From the NCBI GenBank assembly GCA_023428025.1, contig JAEYZN010000021.1, forward strand, positions 108,085 to 172,084: a stretch of 64,000 nucleotides of DNA, written 5' to 3'. The notes below the pieces were generated by a model. The model did not search any database. It saw only the letters and a program-made list of their open reading frames with translations, and was not told the DNA's origin. Source of the DNA: Bacillota bacterium (GTDB lineage Bacteria > Bacillota > Clostridia > Christensenellales > SZUA-584). Below, in pieces: positions 25,825 through 32,941 of the stretch. The first letter of the stretch is position 1, and every line of letters starts with the position of its first letter. The translations under genes were made by a program, and so were the position numbers.

Positions 25825-26403
25825 ATGAGCGAGCCAACAGATTATATCAACGAACCCGACACAAACGGCCAGACCAGCGAAAACGAAAAACAGCCTTTGA
25901 GCCGAAAAGCCAAGTTGATCATCGGGATCGGTGCGGCTGTGGTGATTGTGGCTTTGGGCCTGGCGCTGCCGTTCCTGCTGCAAAGGAGTGAACCCTCCGT
26001 CCTGACGGTGACGGTATTCTCCAACGACTGGTCCGAGGTGACGCTGAAGCCGGGCGTCGAAACGGCTCTCAATGAATTTCTGGCGTCGGACAGCAGCGTC
26101 CCCGGTTTTCCCCTGCGCGTCAGCGACACAGACGCGGATGATATTTTGCTGTCTGTGGACGCCGGGACGCTACTGACATGGGGCAAGCCGGATTATGTGG
26201 CGAGCGACAAAGGCAATGAGTATGCGGTCTCCACGGGAAGCACTGTATACTGGTCTCCCGTCGGCGCCGACGACTCCCTCGTTCCCCAGTGCACATTGAC
26301 AGTCACTGCCCGCAAGGGCGGCACTGAGGCCGGGCAAGCCCGCCTGATCATTCGTCAGACAAGCGAAACAGGCTACAGTATTACGCTGCTGGCCAGCGAA
26401 TAA
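25825..26403 (+). CDS. hypothetical single-pass membrane protein
   Basis: 192-aa ORF with a good SD (GGAAGGAGA, 7 nt before the ATG). Has an acidic N-terminus, one TM (LIIGIGAAVVIVALGLALPFLL) and an extracytoplasmic domain of about 140 aa. No family recognised. Confidence 0.5.
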   Translation: MSEPTDYINEPDTNGQTSENEKQPLSRKAKLIIGIGAAVVIVALGLALPFLLQRSEPSVLTVTVFSNDWSEVTLKPGVETALNEFLASDSSVPGFPLRVSDTDADDILLSVDAGTLLTWGKPDYVASDKGNEYAVSTGSTVYWSPVGADDSLVPQCTLTVTARKGGTEAGQARLIIRQTSETGYSITLLASE

Positions 26404-26520
26404 TCAAACGATCAGTAAAACAAAAAGGCGGCGCCGGGTCACGGCAAACCGTCTTTTTTATTGACTGAAGTGTATGTTCGTCGGCCCTTTTCCTTACAGC
26501 AGGCCGCTCAAAATACGGGA

Positions 26521-27198
26521 TTATGACACGACGTCGCCCTTGTAGCTGATCAGCGAAGCGTTAAGCACGCCTGGAATCGTCGAAAACGAATCGATCATAC
26601 CGGCCTCACTCTCACGAATGTTCATCTCGATCGTCAGCTCGATCATCCCTTCGGACACAATCTTGGATTTGAGCCGGCCGGGAGGCATTTTGCGGAGCAG
26701 CGCCTGCACGTCTTTCTTGCTGCTCTCTTCAAATCGCACGACGAGCATGAACGGAAAATTCTTCTTGGACTTGAACAGGTTCCAGATCAGCAGCACCACA
26801 CCGATGATGCCTGATGCCAGCAGCGCGACGGTAAACAGCCGGGCACCCAGCACAATACCGGATGCGATAGCCCAGAACATATAGATTGTATCGAGCGGGT
26901 CCTTCACAGCGGTCCTGAAACGGACGATGGACAGCGCGCCCACCATACCAAGTGCGAGGCCAAGATTAAGCGATATGGGCATGATAATCATCGCCGTCAC
27001 CATTGTCAGCATGACCAGCGCCGTGCCAAAGCTTTTGGCAAAGATAACGCCGCTGAACGTCAGCCTGTAGATCAAATAGATAAACAACCCCAAAACAAAT
27101 GCCAACCCCAGAGTGATCAGGACCGTAACCAGATCCAGCTCCGTTGGCATTGTAAAATCTTCTAAAACGCTCTTCTTGATAATGTCCGTGGCTCCCAT
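26521..27198 (-). CDS. DUF4956-family polytopic membrane protein
   Basis: 225 aa with about four TM helices, including the conserved-looking SIVRFRTAVKDP segment, followed by a soluble tail of about 90 aa. Starts 11 nt after the VTC gene. The family is recognised from memory. Confidence 0.7.
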   Translation of the reverse strand: MGATDIIKKSVLEDFTMPTELDLVTVLITLGLAFVLGLFIYLIYRLTFSGVIFAKSFGTALVMLTMVTAMIIMPISLNLGLALGMVGALSIVRFRTAVKDPLDTIYMFWAIASGIVLGARLFTVALLASGIIGVVLLIWNLFKSKKNFPFMLVVRFEESSKKDVQALLRKMPPGRLKSKIVSEGMIELTIEMNIRESEAGMIDSFSTIPGVLNASLISYKGDVVS

Positions 27199-27209
27199 AA
27201 TAATTCCTC

Positions 27210-28595
27210 CTATTCATACTTCCTGCATAGCACATATTTTGACACGGCACTCCTTTGCGCCGCGTTCACATTGTTCAGCACAGCCTTGATAAACACCGGC
27301 AGATACCGGTTAAACTTGACCTCCAGCACCATGGTGCCGGGTTCCAGCACCGGCATCGTGGGCGCGTTCGGGTTGAATATATCCGTCAGCCAAAGGCCTG
27401 CTTTCAAATCCTTGTCGAACGTGATCCGTACGTTCTCAAACGACGACACATAAGCCTCGCGCCGGTAATCCACAATCACGCGCGGCTTCAGCAGATCGTT
27501 CTTCATCTGCAGAAAGAGTTCGGCGGCCAGCGGCTCCGGACGGCCCTCCAGGCAGCTGCAGTCTCCCGCCATCAGCGCGTCGCACTCAGCCCGCGATATC
27601 AGCAGGCTTGTTTTGGCGATATACTGCCCCTTTTTCATCTTCTTTTCGAACTTGATCAGATTATCCGAAAAGTCGTAAATGCGTATCCTGTATTTGTGCC
27701 GGATATCGTAGCCCGCCATCTTTTCTGCCAATGCCGTCTCATACACATCGTCAAAATACAGGCTGCGGATATGATAGTCGCCATCCATCCCCGCGTTGCG
27801 ATCCAGCGAGAGCAACGGCTTCAGCGTGTTTTTGAGCAGCACATAGTCGTGATAGTTGATATAGTATTTGAGTTCGTGCCGGAACGACAGTCCTTTTTCA
27901 ACAGATGGGTCTAAGGAAAGCTCTGTCTCCTGATCCGCCGACATCTGTACCTGAACGCTCTGACCGTATGCCCGTTCACGCGACGCAGAACGGGTATTCT
28001 CCGAGAACACGTCCAAATTGCCGGCTTCACCCTGACCGCTTTTGATTCTGGCTCTTGTATATATCTCCTGTTCGGGCATCGCTTGCGCCCCTGCCGGAAT
28101 CTCCAGAGATTTTTCTTTTTCCGGCGCCTTTCGGCCGACACGCGAAGGAGCCTTTTCAGGTTCTCTTTTTTCTGACATCGCCGGGCGCTTTTGAGGTGCC
28201 GGTTCAGCGGGCTTGGCAGCGGTGCGCGGCGTGGCAGGCGTTGCAGTTTCAACCGTCTGTTTTTTCACCGGCCTTGCCGTCTCTTTTGTACTCTCTTCTT
28301 CACCGAAAAGCGTCAGCCCTTGACGGGGAGCGGCTGCGGTCCCTTGCCTCTGATTGTACCGGTTAGCCAGATCAGCGCCTCTCACTGCGGGACTTTTGAG
28401 CGCGGGCTTCTTTGGCGCTGCCGCAAAACGGGGCGGCTCAACACTCCGCGTGTTTTTTCTCGCGTCCGGCTTTGCGCTGCCAGCGCTCGTTCGGGGTGCA
28501 AAATCCCGCGACGAAAGCGGCTGCAGGTCGCTGCGCTTGACAAGCGGTTTTTGCTTACTCAGTTTTCTGAAAATATCGTCGTCTTTTCTTGCCAT
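27210..28595 (-). CDS. VTC-domain (polyphosphate-polymerase-like, triphosphate tunnel) protein with a long disordered N-terminus
   Basis: 461 aa. The C-terminal ~230 aa (FRHELKYYI...HIRSLYFD...HKYRIRIY...LEVKF) resemble the bacterial VTC / polyphosphate polymerase domain. The N-terminal ~230 aa are Ala/Pro/Lys/Arg/Glu-rich low complexity. SD TGAGGA lies before the ATG. Confidence 0.72.
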   Translation of the reverse strand: MARKDDDIFRKLSKQKPLVKRSDLQPLSSRDFAPRTSAGSAKPDARKNTRSVEPPRFAAAPKKPALKSPAVRGADLANRYNQRQGTAAAPRQGLTLFGEEESTKETARPVKKQTVETATPATPRTAAKPAEPAPQKRPAMSEKREPEKAPSRVGRKAPEKEKSLEIPAGAQAMPEQEIYTRARIKSGQGEAGNLDVFSENTRSASRERAYGQSVQVQMSADQETELSLDPSVEKGLSFRHELKYYINYHDYVLLKNTLKPLLSLDRNAGMDGDYHIRSLYFDDVYETALAEKMAGYDIRHKYRIRIYDFSDNLIKFEKKMKKGQYIAKTSLLISRAECDALMAGDCSCLEGRPEPLAAELFLQMKNDLLKPRVIVDYRREAYVSSFENVRITFDKDLKAGLWLTDIFNPNAPTMPVLEPGTMVLEVKFNRYLPVFIKAVLNNVNAAQRSAVSKYVLCRKYE

Positions 28596-28642
28596 CTTAT
28601 CCTCAGTTCACAGCGACAGCTTTTAAGCTGTTCGCTGAACTT

Positions 28643-31600
28643 CTATTCTCCGTAGTTGACCGCAGCATCCAGCACGCTCTTCTGTTCGCCAGATAATGAG
28701 AACGCGCTTTTCAGCTGCTGGACCATGTTTGCGCCGCGCTTTTGGGCAAAGGTCTTCATGCTCTCCAGCGTGCTCTCCCAGCCCTGCATGGTACCGCCGA
28801 ACTTTTCCCGCTCCGCAGGCATTTCGCTGCGCACCATGTCGGCAATGGTATCGATCGTTTCGATCACATGGCTGGGTGCATAGACCTCTTTGAGCGCCCA
28901 GGCAAACCGCTCGATGAACTTATCGCGCCAGGGCTTGTACGCCAGCAGTCCGTTAAACAGCGTGGAGCCCGCCTTTGAACTCTCCATCCTTTTTGCCAGC
29001 GTCGGATGATCGCCATTGGGGAATTCGCTGCTTCCGAATGTCCAGCAAAAATCGTAGTAGATCTGCTTCCACTTTCCGTCTGGCAACAGCTGATAATACT
29101 CGATGTTCGCGTAGTCGGAGTTGGCCACCCAGACCTGGTTGATCATCATATCCATAAAGCTGTCGGTATCCACCTGTGCCGCGACATGCTGATAATTCTC
29201 TTCCACAGACATGTCGTGCGTGGAGATAAACGTCATCAGCTCGTTATAGCCGCTGACATCGCCCTGTATCAGCCTTGCGGTGGACCACACGATGTTCATG
29301 TTGTCCGGGTCTTCAAAGTTCTCGTGCTGCGCGATGAAGTTCTCGTTGCGCTTTTCCATCATGAAATAGACACCCCAATATTCACCGTTCAGATATAACA
29401 CATACGGCTTCCATGCCTGTGTCAGGAAATTAAAGCCCTTGTCCTGCACAAGGGAAAGCGTCACGATCTCCTTGATCTTGCCGATCGTCTGATCCTGTCC
29501 GCCCTGTCTCAGCACCAGTGACTGGTATTCGGTAAACGCTCGGTTATCGAAAAACGCGCACCTCAGCGAATTCGCTCCATATTTGCTGCGGGCCATGATG
29601 GCAAAGGACTTCTGCTTGTTATCACGGCTGTATCCGCCCGCAATGCGGATACCCACGTTCGCGCCAAAAATCTCCCGGCCGTTTTCATCGAATACCTCGA
29701 AGGACGCCGGGCGTTCGGACTCCTGACCGCGCTCCAGATAATTCGCCACCTCATAGTGCGTGGTAGACCCTTCGACCAGCACCGGATTGGGCCCCGGCAC
29801 ATAGATGCCCGTTTGTTCGTTCCAGAGATAATCCGGATTTGTCACAATGGACAACAGCGGCAGCGCGTGCTGCTCGCCGATGAAGTATGTCTGCGTCTGG
29901 ATGACGCTGGGCAGGAAACCGTCTTTGTAGGCTCTGGCCCGTATCATGCCCGTCTTATCGACCATGACGGGCCCCGTGTATTGAGCAGAGCTTTGGGTCG
30001 GCTCCGTTCCATCCATGGTATAATATATCTGTGCATCTGCCGTATCACATTCCAGAGAGACGGTTTGCACCGCATCATAGCTGCCGGGCGTCGTTGTGGC
30101 TTTGGGCGAAGCCGCAATGCCCTGCAGCGGATTGGCGTTGGCCGCGCCGGGCGTTGGCTGCTCAAAATAAAAAAGAGAGTCCTGCCCGTCTATCCTGCCC
30201 ACCGAAACGCCATAAGGCAGATAGCTCAGGTTGTACTTGTCCTGCAAAACGCCGTTTGCGTTGAACAAGGCGAGCACTTCGCCGTCTGCGCTGAGTTTAA
30301 AGCTGGTATGGATAAAGTTTTTTTTTACGTCCTCGCTATTGGCCAGGCCGGAGGCCAGCACCGTCACATACTGGCCGGGACTCAGCGTCATTTCCGGCAA
30401 ACGCCATTTTGCCGGATTGCCCGCGTTGTCCGTCAAACCATAACGCGAGATGTCCATGGGTTGGTCGCTGCGGTTGTACAGCTCTATCCAGTCATAAAAC
30501 TCGCCGTCCACCTCTTCAAGGAACTGCGAGTTGGACGACATGACCTCGGAGATCACCACCGGCCCCAGCGCGACAGGATTGGCTTCAAGGAACTGAGTGT
30601 ACCCCGCGTCATTGTTCGCGTACCCGGGCGTAGGCTGGCTCGTGGATTCCCACGCGTCCCCGTAAGCGCCGGTTTCATCCATCGCCCGCGCATAAGCCTG
30701 ATCCGTTCTTGATTCAGCCACGGCGATCTGATCGATCAGCAGACCTGCGGGATTGGACAGCACGATGGTCTCCTGATAGGACGATATCCTGAAGTTCGTA
30801 TGGATAGCGCCTTTTTCCAGATCCGTGTTGGCTGCATCCGCGCCGGACGCAAACACGACGAGATACGCCCCCGGCTGAATCGTCACATCGGGGAACTTCC
30901 AGTCGAGCACGTCAGCCGGATCATCCGAAAGCCCATACCCATTCAGGCTGACCGCTTCGTTGCCCGCGTTGTATATCTCGACGTAATCGCTGTAAACACC
31001 GGTATTGTCCGCCAGCGTCGTCCGGTTGGAGGCCATCACTTCCGTGATGATCAGCGGAGACTCCGGCGCTTTACGGCTTTCAATAAAGGCCGCATAACCC
31101 GCCTCGTCGTTGGAGAAGCCGGGCGTGGGCTTGTCGAATGTCTTCCACGCGCCGATATCCTGAGCATCCCGCCCCAGAGAGATGTTTTCGACCTGGTCTT
31201 TGTACTCCACCTGGTCTATCACCTGGCCGGATGACGTTGTCAGGTATACGCCGCCGCTTGCCGCATTCATCTTAAAGCTGGCATGCAAGGGCTTGTCCGG
31301 ATCGCTCGCGTCGTTGCCGGATGCAAAAATGAGCAAGTACCCGCCCGGAGCCAGCGATACGCTCGGGAACGGCCATTTGATGTCGGTCGGATCGTCCGTG
31401 AGGCCCAGGCCGGACAGGCTTACCGCGCTGTCGGTCGGGTTGTAAATCTCAATCCAGTCGCTGTAATTTCCCTGATCATCAGGCAGGCAGCTGCTGTTGG
31501 ACGCCATAAACTCGTTGATCACTATGGCGCCCGAAGACGTGCCCGGCGAAGCCGCCGGATCACCTTCCGGCTTGTTCTGCCCCAGCGCATATATCAGAAC

Positions 31601-31657
31601 GCCCGCGCATAACGCAAGCGCAATAATAATTGAAACAATGTATTTGAATGCTCTCAA
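28643..31657 (-). CDS. CotH kinase family protein with signal anchor, three lamin-tail-like domains and a chitobiase/hexosaminidase-C-like domain
   Basis: 1004 aa with a TTG start preceded by GAAGGAG and an N-terminal TM.
- Three repeats of the pattern (I/V)I(N/T/S)E(F/V)M(A/S)SN...Y(S/D)D(W/Y)(I/V)E(I/L)YN...L(S/T)DD occupy aa ~44-505.
- IYYTMDGTEPT...RARAYKDG lies at aa ~520-592.
- The C-terminal ~400 aa are CotH-like (LRQGGQD, YLNGEYWGVY). Confidence 0.8.
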   Translation of the reverse strand: MRAFKYIVSIIIALALCAGVLIYALGQNKPEGDPAASPGTSSGAIVINEFMASNSSCLPDDQGNYSDWIEIYNPTDSAVSLSGLGLTDDPTDIKWPFPSVSLAPGGYLLIFASGNDASDPDKPLHASFKMNAASGGVYLTTSSGQVIDQVEYKDQVENISLGRDAQDIGAWKTFDKPTPGFSNDEAGYAAFIESRKAPESPLIITEVMASNRTTLADNTGVYSDYVEIYNAGNEAVSLNGYGLSDDPADVLDWKFPDVTIQPGAYLVVFASGADAANTDLEKGAIHTNFRISSYQETIVLSNPAGLLIDQIAVAESRTDQAYARAMDETGAYGDAWESTSQPTPGYANNDAGYTQFLEANPVALGPVVISEVMSSNSQFLEEVDGEFYDWIELYNRSDQPMDISRYGLTDNAGNPAKWRLPEMTLSPGQYVTVLASGLANSEDVKKNFIHTSFKLSADGEVLALFNANGVLQDKYNLSYLPYGVSVGRIDGQDSLFYFEQPTPGAANANPLQGIAASPKATTTPGSYDAVQTVSLECDTADAQIYYTMDGTEPTQSSAQYTGPVMVDKTGMIRARAYKDGFLPSVIQTQTYFIGEQHALPLLSIVTNPDYLWNEQTGIYVPGPNPVLVEGSTTHYEVANYLERGQESERPASFEVFDENGREIFGANVGIRIAGGYSRDNKQKSFAIMARSKYGANSLRCAFFDNRAFTEYQSLVLRQGGQDQTIGKIKEIVTLSLVQDKGFNFLTQAWKPYVLYLNGEYWGVYFMMEKRNENFIAQHENFEDPDNMNIVWSTARLIQGDVSGYNELMTFISTHDMSVEENYQHVAAQVDTDSFMDMMINQVWVANSDYANIEYYQLLPDGKWKQIYYDFCWTFGSSEFPNGDHPTLAKRMESSKAGSTLFNGLLAYKPWRDKFIERFAWALKEVYAPSHVIETIDTIADMVRSEMPAEREKFGGTMQGWESTLESMKTFAQKRGANMVQQLKSAFSLSGEQKSVLDAAVNYGE

Positions 31658-31708
31658 CGCAAGCTCCTTCGGTTCATTTGTAAAAACCGCGTAAAGTCAC
31701 TGCCACTG

Positions 31709-31737
31709 ATTTTATCACGCTTTTCAAGCAAAAACAA
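31709..31737 (-). promoter_or_regulatory. putative promoter of the CotH-VTC-DUF4956 unit
   Basis: Minus strand: TTGTTT (31732-31737), a 17-nt spacer ending in TGA (extended -10), then TAAAAT (31709-31714). About 50 nt upstream of the CotH start. Confidence 0.45.
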
Positions 31738-31801: not shown

Positions 31802-31825
31802 AAAAAAGCCGGGCAGAACCGGCTT
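31802..31825 (-). terminator. intrinsic terminator after the zinc-ribbon gene
   Basis: Minus-strand RNA: AGCCGG-TTCTGC-CCGGCT followed by TTTTTTA. Confidence 0.65.
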
Positions 31826-31881
31826 CATTTTGGTGCTAAAACTTCACTGATCATTGACTAAAGCGCCTGGCTGAATGGACG

Positions 31882-32505
31882 TCAGTCTGCTGCGTTATCC
31901 TCTCCAAATTGATCGCTGGCATCGTCAGCAAAATCATTGCGATCGAAATTATTGTCCGCACGCGTGAATGCCCCCATGTCGTACACGTAAAGCGTGTCTT
32001 TATCAACGGCGAAATCAAATTCCCGCCCATCGCTCATCTCGATATGGCCTTCACCCTTGGCCTGATCATATTGATAATCGCCCCCAAAATCGCCGTAGGG
32101 CGTATAAGCGTCAAAACTGCCGCCCGCGCCAAAGCGGATGACTTCTCCCCGGTTCTCGCTGTACCATTCACCCTTCACAGGAACGGCCGTATTCAAAAAG
32201 CCGGGCCATACAAAAAACAGCACCGCGGTAATGCCGAGCAGCGCCACAATGCCAACGATCAGGCCGACAACCAGCCCTGTTTTTCTCTTCTGTACCGGCA
32301 CTGCGCTATAGCCCTGCTGTGGCGGCGGATAGTAACCCTGATGCGGGTAGCTCGAAGGAACGGTATACGTTGGCGGAAGAGGCCATCCCTCATCCGGTGT
32401 TTCGGGAGGTTTTGGCGGCTGCGCTACAGAGGAAAGCGGGTTGCCGCAATACACACAAAAAACAGATCCATCAGAGACCGATTGACCGCATTTCGAACAA
32501 AACAT
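31882..32505 (-). CDS. zinc-ribbon membrane protein, function unknown
   Basis: Start is at MFCSKCG, preceded by GGAGGGA. Architecture: a CxxC...CxxC zinc ribbon, a Pro/Tyr/Gln-rich linker, one TM, then an acidic extracytoplasmic domain of about 110 aa. Confidence 0.65.
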   Translation of the reverse strand: MFCSKCGQSVSDGSVFCVYCGNPLSSVAQPPKPPETPDEGWPLPPTYTVPSSYPHQGYYPPPQQGYSAVPVQKRKTGLVVGLIVGIVALLGITAVLFFVWPGFLNTAVPVKGEWYSENRGEVIRFGAGGSFDAYTPYGDFGGDYQYDQAKGEGHIEMSDGREFDFAVDKDTLYVYDMGAFTRADNNFDRNDFADDASDQFGEDNAAD

Positions 32506-32642
32506 GGGACATCCCTCCATATTGGTTGTATCATTCCCTGATACCAATCATTATAACATAGATATGTTCACAATACCGTGCGAATTAACCAATATCCTGG
32601 TTTTACTGATCTTTTTGGGAGCGTGGGTTCCAGATATGCGGC

Positions 32643-32828
32643 TTATAGTCCCAGGATTAAAAATACAGCGATGATGGCCACAACCATAACGCCAAAGACA
32701 ATGAAAACCACCTTATTCGTCTTGCGCTGTTTGCTGGCCGGCGAGGTGCCCGTCACAAGCGCGAGCCCGCAGTCTGCGCATACCTTTTTTGTTTTGGGAT
32801 AGTCTTTTCCGCATTGTTTGCAATACAT
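32643..32828 (-). CDS. small zinc-ribbon membrane protein
   Basis: 61 aa starting at MYCKQCG, preceded by GGAGGG. CxxC...CxxC is followed by a basic stretch and one C-terminal TM. Confidence 0.5.
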   Translation of the reverse strand: MYCKQCGKDYPKTKKVCADCGLALVTGTSPASKQRKTNKVVFIVFGVMVVAIIAVFLILGL

Positions 32829-32941
32829 ATATATACCCTCCGTAATTTGTAATGGTATTTTACCACAATGCCCATGGATGTCCAACACAAAATATATCAG
32901 AAGATGCCCGCTTTTTTTGGTATAAACGCATTATTATTATG

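Follow-up and report, generated by a model that had tools for sequence, protein, structure and literature searches.

A stand-alone operon of CotH, VTC and DUF4956 genes as a candidate phosphate-polymer module of the Gram-positive cell exterior

Genes for a CotH protein, a poly-phosphate polymerase, a DUF4956 protein and a DUF4832 protein were described as contiguous neighbours of pelDEADAFG by Whitfield et al. in 2020 (PMC7112168), and this Pel-associated accessory set was found in streptococci, clostridia, and bifidobacteria. In Streptococcus intermedius, the CotH, polymerase, and DUF4956 genes of the set are SIR_1594, SIR_1593, and SIR_1592, respectively (mBio 2025, PMC12345266; preprint 2024); the models published for their three products largely agree with ours, each gene was deleted, and loss of either the CotH or the DUF4956 gene altered the Pel level and aggregation (PMC12345266). 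Furthermore, the VTC complex of yeast is known from a cryo-electron microscopy (cryo-EM) study to couple the synthesis of polyphosphate (polyP) to its transit across the membrane via a basic channel. Here, we analysed a stretch of 64,000 nucleotides from a Bacillota bacterium of the Christensenellales (hereafter the window; GenBank assembly GCA_023428025.1, contig JAEYZN010000021.1, positions 108,085 to 172,084), in which an operon encodes a CotH protein, a VTC protein and a DUF4956 protein. This locus is a stand-alone instance of the gene set known from the literature. The preliminary description of this DNA had known of no experimental account of such a bacterial system, a statement contradicted by the two papers, of which the first reports the set (2020) and the second the gene deletions (2025).

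We tentatively read the operon as an envelope-associated phosphate-polymer system, in which polyP would be made by the VTC protein, exported via the DUF4956 protein and used by the CotH protein, a possibility that we hold to be short of probable. The triad consists of the following genes:

28643-31657, minus strand: gene 1, CotH protein of 1004 amino acids, TTG start, from the open reading frame (ORF) call
27210-28595, minus strand: gene 2, VTC protein of 461 amino acids, ATG start, from the ORF call
26521-27198, minus strand: gene 3, DUF4956 protein of 225 amino acids, ATG start, from the ORF call

Gaps of only 47 nt (CotH/VTC) and 11 nt (VTC/DUF4956) separate the three genes, and each of them has its own Shine-Dalgarno (SD) sequence, namely GAAGGAG at 31664-31670, 6 nt before the TTG, for the CotH gene, GAGG, 6 nt before the ATG, for the VTC gene, and AGGAGG, 8 nt before the ATG, for the DUF4956 gene. 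This co-directional layout, already noted in the preliminary description, was confirmed with exact coordinates and SD sequences, and the family assignments made there were borne out by Pfam, in which all three products gave matches above the gathering scores. RefSeq names in use for such proteins are "polyphosphate polymerase domain-containing", "DUF4956 domain-containing", and "CotH kinase family"; in NCBIfam, none of the three proteins matched a family.

Central to our reading is the VTC protein, which matches the VTC domain PF09359 with 127 bits against a cutoff of 23 (E=9e-37), within a family in which 4432 clusters at 50% identity match this domain. Its parts are:

27225-27884, minus strand: VTC/triphosphate tunnel metalloenzyme (TTM) domain, residues 238-457, from Pfam, an AlphaFold2 (AF2) model, Foldseek and profile alignment
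28506-28595, minus strand: conserved N-terminal motif MARKDDDIFRKLxKxKPLVKRxDLQPLSS, residues 1-30, conserved in 20 homologues
27885-28505, minus strand: basic, disordered linker rich in Ala, Arg, Pro, and Lys, residues 31-237, of variable length among relatives

Over residues 241-440 of the tunnel domain the AF2 model has pLDDT block means of 81-95, mostly above 90, and in a Foldseek search of the PDB its best 12 matches were Vtc4 or Vtc3 chains (best E=6e-12), followed by Vtc2 at rank 13. A single-sequence search of the window protein against PDB sequences returned no match and profiles were required, of which one built from 41 bacterial VTC domains aligned to yeast Vtc4 (3G3Q, E=6e-8; chain offset +185, calibrated on K200, R264, R266, and K281). 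By this alignment, K200, R264, R266, K281, Y359, R361, R373, and E426 of Vtc4 correspond to K243, R303, R305, K319, Y377, R379, R390, and E425 of the window protein, respectively, and S457 and K458 would correspond to S452 and K453, both pairs lying 19 and 20 residues past the aligned proline. As a profile of the C-terminal part of the domain alone did not reach Vtc4, the equivalence of S457 and K458 rests on this spacing. Thus, of the nine Vtc4 residues that contact triphosphate or Mn2+, seven (K200, R264, R266, K281, Y359, R361, and E426) are matched by alignment and two (S457 and K458) by spacing, and all mapped tunnel residues are invariant across the 41 bacterial sequences. According to the yeast cryo-EM study, these residues bind triphosphate and Mn2+ and are needed for polyP, and K458 is replaced in the inactive Vtc2 and Vtc3. 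Judged by its sequence, the window protein is a Vtc4-type triphosphate-tunnel enzyme, with a predicted catalytic residue set in place that includes the lysine distinguishing active Vtc4 from its inactive relatives.

A cytoplasmic location of the VTC protein is supported by its predicted topology, as a transmembrane (TM) segment is absent from the window protein and from all 81 homologues. Neither an SPX domain nor a fused C-terminal membrane domain is present in the window protein, in which Pfam finds the VTC domain only. Ahead of this domain lies an extension of 237 residues, which is predicted to be disordered (AlphaFold pLDDT <50) and of which residues 1-230, motif included, carry a net charge of +14. 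Since its leader motif is conserved among the 20 homologues, the extension represents real coding sequence; the ratio of nonsynonymous to synonymous substitution rates (dN/dS) with respect to a 90% identical relative was 0.074 for the motif, 0.265 for the linker and 0.169 for the whole gene. This basic disordered leader stands out as a clade-specific feature, and the extension might serve in binding to polyP, to the membrane or to another protein. Typical bacterial VTC proteins are only ~225-240 residues long, and extended forms occur within the ~35 cluster representatives that are nearest.

The candidate membrane partner, the DUF4956 protein, matches PF16316 with 38.0 bits against a cutoff of 30.6. 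Among its homologues, 7855 of 8000 candidates scored at E<=1e-5, and PF16316 was found on all 120 of the matches listed. Its features are:

26773-27132, minus strand: five predicted TM helices, residues 23-142, from an AF2 model with a mean pLDDT of 73.8
26545-26757, minus strand: C-terminal beta-alpha-beta-beta-alpha-beta ACT-like domain, residues 148-218, from AF2 and Foldseek

In the AF2 model, the TM helices span residues 23-47, 55-75, 79-97, 101-118, and 122-142, a K/R-rich stretch follows the last of them, and the ACT-like domain is predicted to be cytoplasmic. TM3 and the following loop hold the motif that defines the family, GMVGALSIvRFRTxxKxxxD (residues 84-103), and across 75 sequences of 31-81% identity an invariant core, GMVGALSI.RFRT..K...D....FW, is centred on R93, R95, and K99. 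The C-terminal domain found the MgtC C-terminal domain (2LQJ, E=7e-3) as its top Foldseek match, as well as 7QA5 and then ACT domains. The Pfam MgtC family (PF02308) gave no match on the window protein, and five of six diverse DUF4956 relatives matched it below threshold, with 18-21 bits against a cutoff of 31.4; JGI labels some homologues YhiD. With the moderate confidence that the model affords, the DUF4956 protein is a distant MgtC/YhiD-like protein.

The product of gene 1 combines three lamin-tail (LTD) domains, one CHB_HEX_C_1/Fn3_assoc domain and one CotH kinase domain, arranged as follows:

31583-31639, minus strand: N-terminal hydrophobic segment, residues 7-25, after R2 and K5 (Kyte-Doolittle 2.81)
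30143-31525, minus strand: three LTD domains, residues ~45-180, 197-345, and 365-505 (Pfam, 182 bits, E=3.7e-54, three stretches)
29885-30091, minus strand: CHB_HEX_C_1/Fn3_assoc domain, residues 523-591 (Pfam, E=2.9e-18 and E=4.2e-16)
28727-29650, minus strand: CotH kinase-like domain, residues 670-977 (Pfam PF08757, E=3e-36)

Residues 7-25 are strongly hydrophobic and constitute a predicted signal peptide or type II anchor, which leaves the remaining protein extracytoplasmic, a topology supported by an N-terminal hydrophobic segment in 52 of 57 uncut CotH homologues and by the LTD and CHB_HEX_C modules, which are typically extracellular types. The triple LTD stands out as a clade-specific feature of this protein. 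Its PF08757 match reached 126 bits against a cutoff of 23.8 and covered profile positions 1-321 of 322. As with the VTC protein, PDB sequences gave no match when the CotH domain was searched as a single sequence, and a profile was required; the one built from 31 CotH domains matched Bacillus cereus CotH (5JD9) with E=4.9e-23. Throughout this 31-sequence alignment, N846, D848, and N851 of the catalytic loop and the DFG-like aspartate D869 are invariant. The D848/D869 region aligns to the NFD...WD motif of 5JD9, and both aspartates correspond to D228 and D251 of B. subtilis CotH, in which the mutants D228Q and D251A are inactive (PMC7821199).

To what extent do these genes travel together? Scanning the representative genomes of GTDB gave at least 592 VTC relatives, of which 80, together with one from the contig index, gave the 81 loci analysed; a seed from one divergent VTC protein gave 2 loci, and the cross-phylum spread is under-sampled. 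The VTC and DUF4956 genes were adjacent and co-directional in 80 of the 81 loci, and a CotH gene adjoined them in 64, or in 49 of the 59 loci that have at least 3.5 kb of flank on both sides. Three gene orders occur, namely CotH-VTC-DUF4956 as in the window, CotH-DUF4956-VTC, and VTC-DUF4956-CotH (Paenibacillus and Desulfosporosinus), and in the Paenibacillus version the CotH protein is shorter and lacks LTD domains. Because the genes remain neighbours in three different orders and in dozens of genomic settings unrelated to one another, the arrangement lies far beyond chance. The preliminary description proved right on a soluble VTC protein and on an extracytoplasmic CotH domain, and two findings that it had named as refuting, missing tunnel residues and an adjacency not conserved in other genomes, did not arise. 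At the core of the module stands the VTC-DUF4956 pair, and CotH, or its LTD part alone, is a frequent accessory at the outer face. A larger conserved operon was rejected, as no other neighbouring family occurred in more than 9 of the 81 loci. An apparent CotH-VTC fusion (P0089, 771 amino acids), with a linker that is a translated intergenic stretch, was probably a read-through or frameshift artefact and was left uncounted.

In at least four loci, a protein of 334-360 amino acids with an anchor and two LTD domains replaces CotH directly upstream of VTC:

LTD-only genes, by locus: L085 5532-6608; L165 6884-7936; L002 8827-9903; L005 8857-9939; L068 14-1018

From these proteins, which have lost both the CHB_HEX_C and the kinase part (L002 and L085 being counted as one locus), the LTD part seems to have a role of its own with the VTC-DUF4956 pair.

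The module also recurs beside exopolysaccharide genes, that is, in Pel loci (PMC7112168), in the exopolysaccharide cluster of plasmid pNP95, and in a glycosyltransferase/HEAT cluster of Planococcus and Clostridium perfringens. It is plasmid-borne in two species: on pNP95 of Pseudobutyrivibrio (L169) the triad lies inside the exopolysaccharide cluster, and on a Planococcus plasmid (L170) it is followed by hypothetical, HEAT-repeat, and glycosyltransferase genes, a layout identical to that of C. perfringens NELoc-2. The surveyed loci, in which the triad is common outside Pel loci, contradict the statement of the S. intermedius authors that the synteny was not found outside them (PMC12345266). 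Recurrent neighbours include purple acid phosphatase (9 loci), NAGPA phosphodiester glycosidases (4 loci and L001), a two-component system and an ABC transporter. In divergent lineages, genes for an OmpR-type response regulator and a histidine kinase stand directly upstream of, or divergent from, VTC-DUF4956-CotH:

Two-component genes by the triad, by locus: L081 7676-9816; L023 7151-9507; L164 286-2216; L167 5740-7876

Their best NCBIfam match is PhoB/PhoR, below the cutoffs, which hints at phosphate- or envelope-responsive control of the module.

Within the window, the triad is flanked by comEC, holA, rpsT, and zinc-ribbon genes on one side and by mraZ, rsmH, a penicillin-binding protein (PBP) gene and mur genes on the other, and neither a pel operon nor a DUF4832 hydrolase gene lies within 10 kb of it. 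From this stand-alone position, the module appears to work independently of Pel. The window RsmH is at most 86% identical to that of any GTDB representative, the nearest metagenome-assembled genomes being labelled Christensenellales/Christensenellaceae or Bacillota. In one relative (L171), with VTC and CotH proteins 90% and 96.5% identical to those of the window, the order is again comEC, holA, rpsT, zinc-ribbon, triad, a 191-aa ORF, mraZ, rsmH, PBP, and mur, and no pel or other polysaccharide gene is found within 10 kb of this Pfam-annotated locus. A survey of the ~32 closest relatives, of which ~28 have an upstream flank of sufficient length, found the complete triad upstream of mraZ in 15 and, in a further 3, the VTC-DUF4956 pair with no kinase domain. 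About 10 had neither triad nor pair within 10 kb upstream of rsmH, and at least one of these carries the pair elsewhere on the same contig. With respect to L171, dN/dS was 0.089 for the CotH gene and 0.009 for the DUF4956 gene, the strongest constraint in the triad. By this measure all three genes are evidently under purifying selection, and these low values indicate that all three are functional, with DUF4956 exceptionally constrained.

From these data we envisage that an oligomer of DUF4956 would serve, on the inner side of the membrane, as the docking site at which the VTC protein polymerises phosphate from ATP, and that the polymer would be handed across the membrane, outward. The basic cluster R93/R95/K99 at the end of TM3 in the model would face the cytoplasm if the N terminus lies outside, the orientation that we infer. 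At the surface, the LTD-CotH protein would capture the polymer, and CotH might use it as a phosphoryl donor or attach it, thereby modifying exopolysaccharide, a wall glycopolymer or protein. In support of this scheme we cite the Pfam and fold matches, the linkage of VTC, DUF4956, and CotH genes, the invariant catalytic residues of VTC and CotH, the low dN/dS and invariant motif of DUF4956, the predicted topology, the exopolysaccharide and secreted phosphoesterase neighbours, the altered Pel level and aggregation of the S. intermedius deletion mutants, and the precedent of the yeast VTC complex.

Several points weigh against this scheme. We know of no CotH-fold kinase that uses polyP, and the kinase is not essential to the VTC-DUF4956 pair, as follows from the ten of 59 adequately flanked loci without CotH and from the LTD-only loci. 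No exopolysaccharide genes lie near the triad in the window, and no VTC-DUF4956 fusion was found among 150 representatives. The DUF4956 protein, being MgtC/YhiD-like, is no relative of the membrane domain of eukaryotic VTC, and the glycine-rich part of its motif may be a feature of the MgtC superfamily and not of a polyP path. Furthermore, the bacterial VTC family has an invariant glutamate (E241) where Vtc4 has Thr198, reminiscent of the ExK in the metal-binding ExExK motif of hydrolytic CYTH/TTM enzymes, which makes hydrolase chemistry conceivable. MgtC/YhiD proteins are presented in PMC12345266 as regulators that act on other membrane proteins, MgtC by inhibiting ATP synthase and targeting PhoR, and no channel role is given for them. 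We found in the literature no biochemical test of any bacterial VTC protein.

The proposal can be sharpened into a form that we judge improbable, namely that VTC and DUF4956 would constitute a two-polypeptide polyP synthase-exporter and LTD-CotH the first extracytoplasmic kinase or transferase fed by exported polyP instead of ATP, which jointly would amount to self-supplied phosphorylation or polyP decoration of the Gram-positive surface and to a source of extracellular polyP that does not depend on PPK. No proposal of DUF4956 as a polyP conduit was found in the literature.

Alternatively, though we find this doubtful, the VTC-DUF4956 pair could be a cytoplasmic device for phosphate or energy homeostasis from which nothing is exported, with CotH as a separate surface kinase. 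The VTC protein would then make polyP or sense triphosphates, DUF4956 would tether and regulate it via the ACT domain, possibly with cross-talk to ATP synthase or Pho as for MgtC, and CotH would be co-regulated and use extracellular or periplasm-like ATP. Such a role accords with the MgtC/YhiD likeness of DUF4956 (sub-threshold Pfam matches in five of six relatives, the ACT fold match, and the JGI name) and with the upstream two-component system of several loci, best matched by PhoB/PhoR below cutoffs. The S. intermedius preprint (10.1101/2024.04.20.589940) likewise suggested that polyP may stay cytoplasmic, and its mBio version (PMC12345266) suggests that the three proteins act in phosphate metabolism. 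However, homeostasis leaves unexplained why the pair keeps an extracytoplasmic LTD/CotH protein in 83% of loci and in three orders, and why it is linked to exopolysaccharide clusters and secreted phosphoesterases; in yeast, moreover, polyP synthesis and translocation are coupled. It also counts against this alternative that most bacteria already have a PPK for cytoplasmic polyP.

We consider it unlikely that the VTC protein is a tunnel hydrolase, or another enzyme processing nucleotides or polyP at the membrane with DUF4956, whose likeness to Vtc4 is confined to fold and site. Most characterised bacterial TTM proteins are hydrolases, and Foldseek matches of the VTC fold extend to the triphosphatases YgiF, SaTTM, and ThTPase (E=1e-8 to 1e-5), which together with the invariant E241 at the Thr198 position speaks for this view. 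Nevertheless, the protein is closest to Vtc4 both in sequence (Pfam VTC, not CYTH) and in structure, the equivalent of K458, specific to active polymerases, is invariant, and the position of the first glutamate of ExExK is occupied by R239, as in Vtc4. That the kinase phosphorylates coat proteins during sporulation as Bacillus CotH does, its neighbours being incidental, is highly improbable, since the CotH family name, the many Clostridia or Paenibacillus hosts and one relative (L001) with spore-related genes within 10 kb are set against a secretion anchor and extracellular-type modules, a triad present in non-sporulating Streptococcus and Bifidobacterium (PMC7112168), a VTC/DUF4956 adjacency that is conserved and not incidental, and the absence of a cotG/cotB context.

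With regard to expression of the operon, the following signals were located:

31805-31826, minus strand: intrinsic terminator of the upstream zinc-ribbon gene (terminator scan: 8-bp stem with 5 GC pairs, then a T-run)
31709-31737, minus strand: putative promoter, TTGTTT, 17 nt and a TG-extended -10 element TAAAAT (TGaTAAAAT), read from the sequence
28605-28641, minus strand: RNA hairpin in the 47-nt CotH/VTC gap (dG, the folding free energy, -17.9 kcal/mol; z=-2.8)
26432-26446, minus strand: weak terminator-like hairpin and T-run, ~75 nt past the last stop codon

The terminator insulates the operon from the upstream zinc-ribbon gene, as the preliminary description had claimed, whereas the promoter-like element proposed there fared less well: it was not returned by a sigma-70 consensus scan, its -35 element matches in only 3 of 6 positions, and the sequence leaves it a plausible promoter. 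Having no T-run, the gap hairpin is not a terminator; it could confer differential mRNA stability or translation on the kinase gene versus the VTC-DUF4956 pair. An Rfam search of the operon leader matched no riboswitch or leader family, and PADLOC gave no match for the triad proteins and hence no sign of a defence system.

Beyond the operon, the minus-strand ORFs at 31882-32547 and 32643-32888 encode two proteins with an N-terminal zinc ribbon (DZR) and one TM segment each, the first also with a linker rich in Pro, Gln, and Tyr; zinc-ribbon genes are similarly placed in the relatives L085, L165, and L171. Convergent with the operon, a plus-strand ORF of 192 amino acids (25825-26403), with a single predicted TM segment, matches no Pfam family, and a 191-aa ORF occupies its position in L171 and L172.

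If the phosphate-polymer reading is true, bacteria would possess a second polyP synthase, unrelated to PPK1/PPK2, that builds polymer for the cell exterior and couples it to a kinase at the surface. Three questions would be touched by this: what drives phosphorylation outside the cytoplasm, where little ATP is available, from where the PPK-independent extracellular polyP of Firmicutes originates, and what part the conserved accessory genes at Pel and further exopolysaccharide loci play in biofilms and virulence. For the B. cereus group, a 2026 preprint reports extracellular polyP that is independent of PPK and made by an unknown synthase, and its authors state that B. cereus has no VTC4 homologue (bioRxiv 10.64898/2026.08.04.742738), a report that does not point to the triad as the source. 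The module is a candidate route to a phosphate polymer for the Gram-positive cell exterior, and for experiments, in our judgement, the Paenibacillus version offers a more tractable host.

In comparison with known systems, the window operon most directly recalls the Pel accessory set, with which it has in common the three Pfam families, encoded side by side on one strand, a CotH protein that is secreted, a VTC-like protein of the cytoplasm, and a DUF4956 protein for which MgtC-like TM helices and an ACT domain have been described. In contrast to that set, it has no pel operon or DUF4832 gene and stands alone between rpsT/holA/comEC and mraZ/rsmH, its CotH protein carries three LTD domains and CHB_HEX_C where the Pel set has a C-terminal FN3 domain, and its VTC protein has the 237-residue basic disordered extension with the conserved leader motif. 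With the eukaryotic VTC complex (Vtc4/Vtc3(2)/Vtc1) it shares the tunnel-fold domain, the same triphosphate/Mn-binding residues, and the logic of a soluble catalytic domain plus a membrane component; it differs in having no SPX domain, a catalytic domain unfused to a membrane domain, and E241 for Thr198. Moreover, its membrane partner is MgtC-like, with five TM helices by prediction and an ACT-like domain, whereas the eukaryotic membrane domain has three helices and is of the DUF202 type. The CotH protein belongs to the same fold family as Bacillus spore-coat CotH (5JD9/5JDA) and keeps the catalytic aspartate equivalents, but is three times longer, secreted or anchored, equipped with LTD and CHB_HEX_C, and found outside a cotG/cotB context; spore-coat CotH in the strict sense has no secretion signal and acts on CotB/CotG in the mother cell. 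Finally, the DUF4956 protein resembles MgtC/SapB/YhiD in its five predicted TM helices and C-terminal ACT-like domain, as far as its model can be trusted, and is set apart from them by the distinct invariant RFRT..K motif and by its pairing with a VTC enzyme in 80 of 81 loci.

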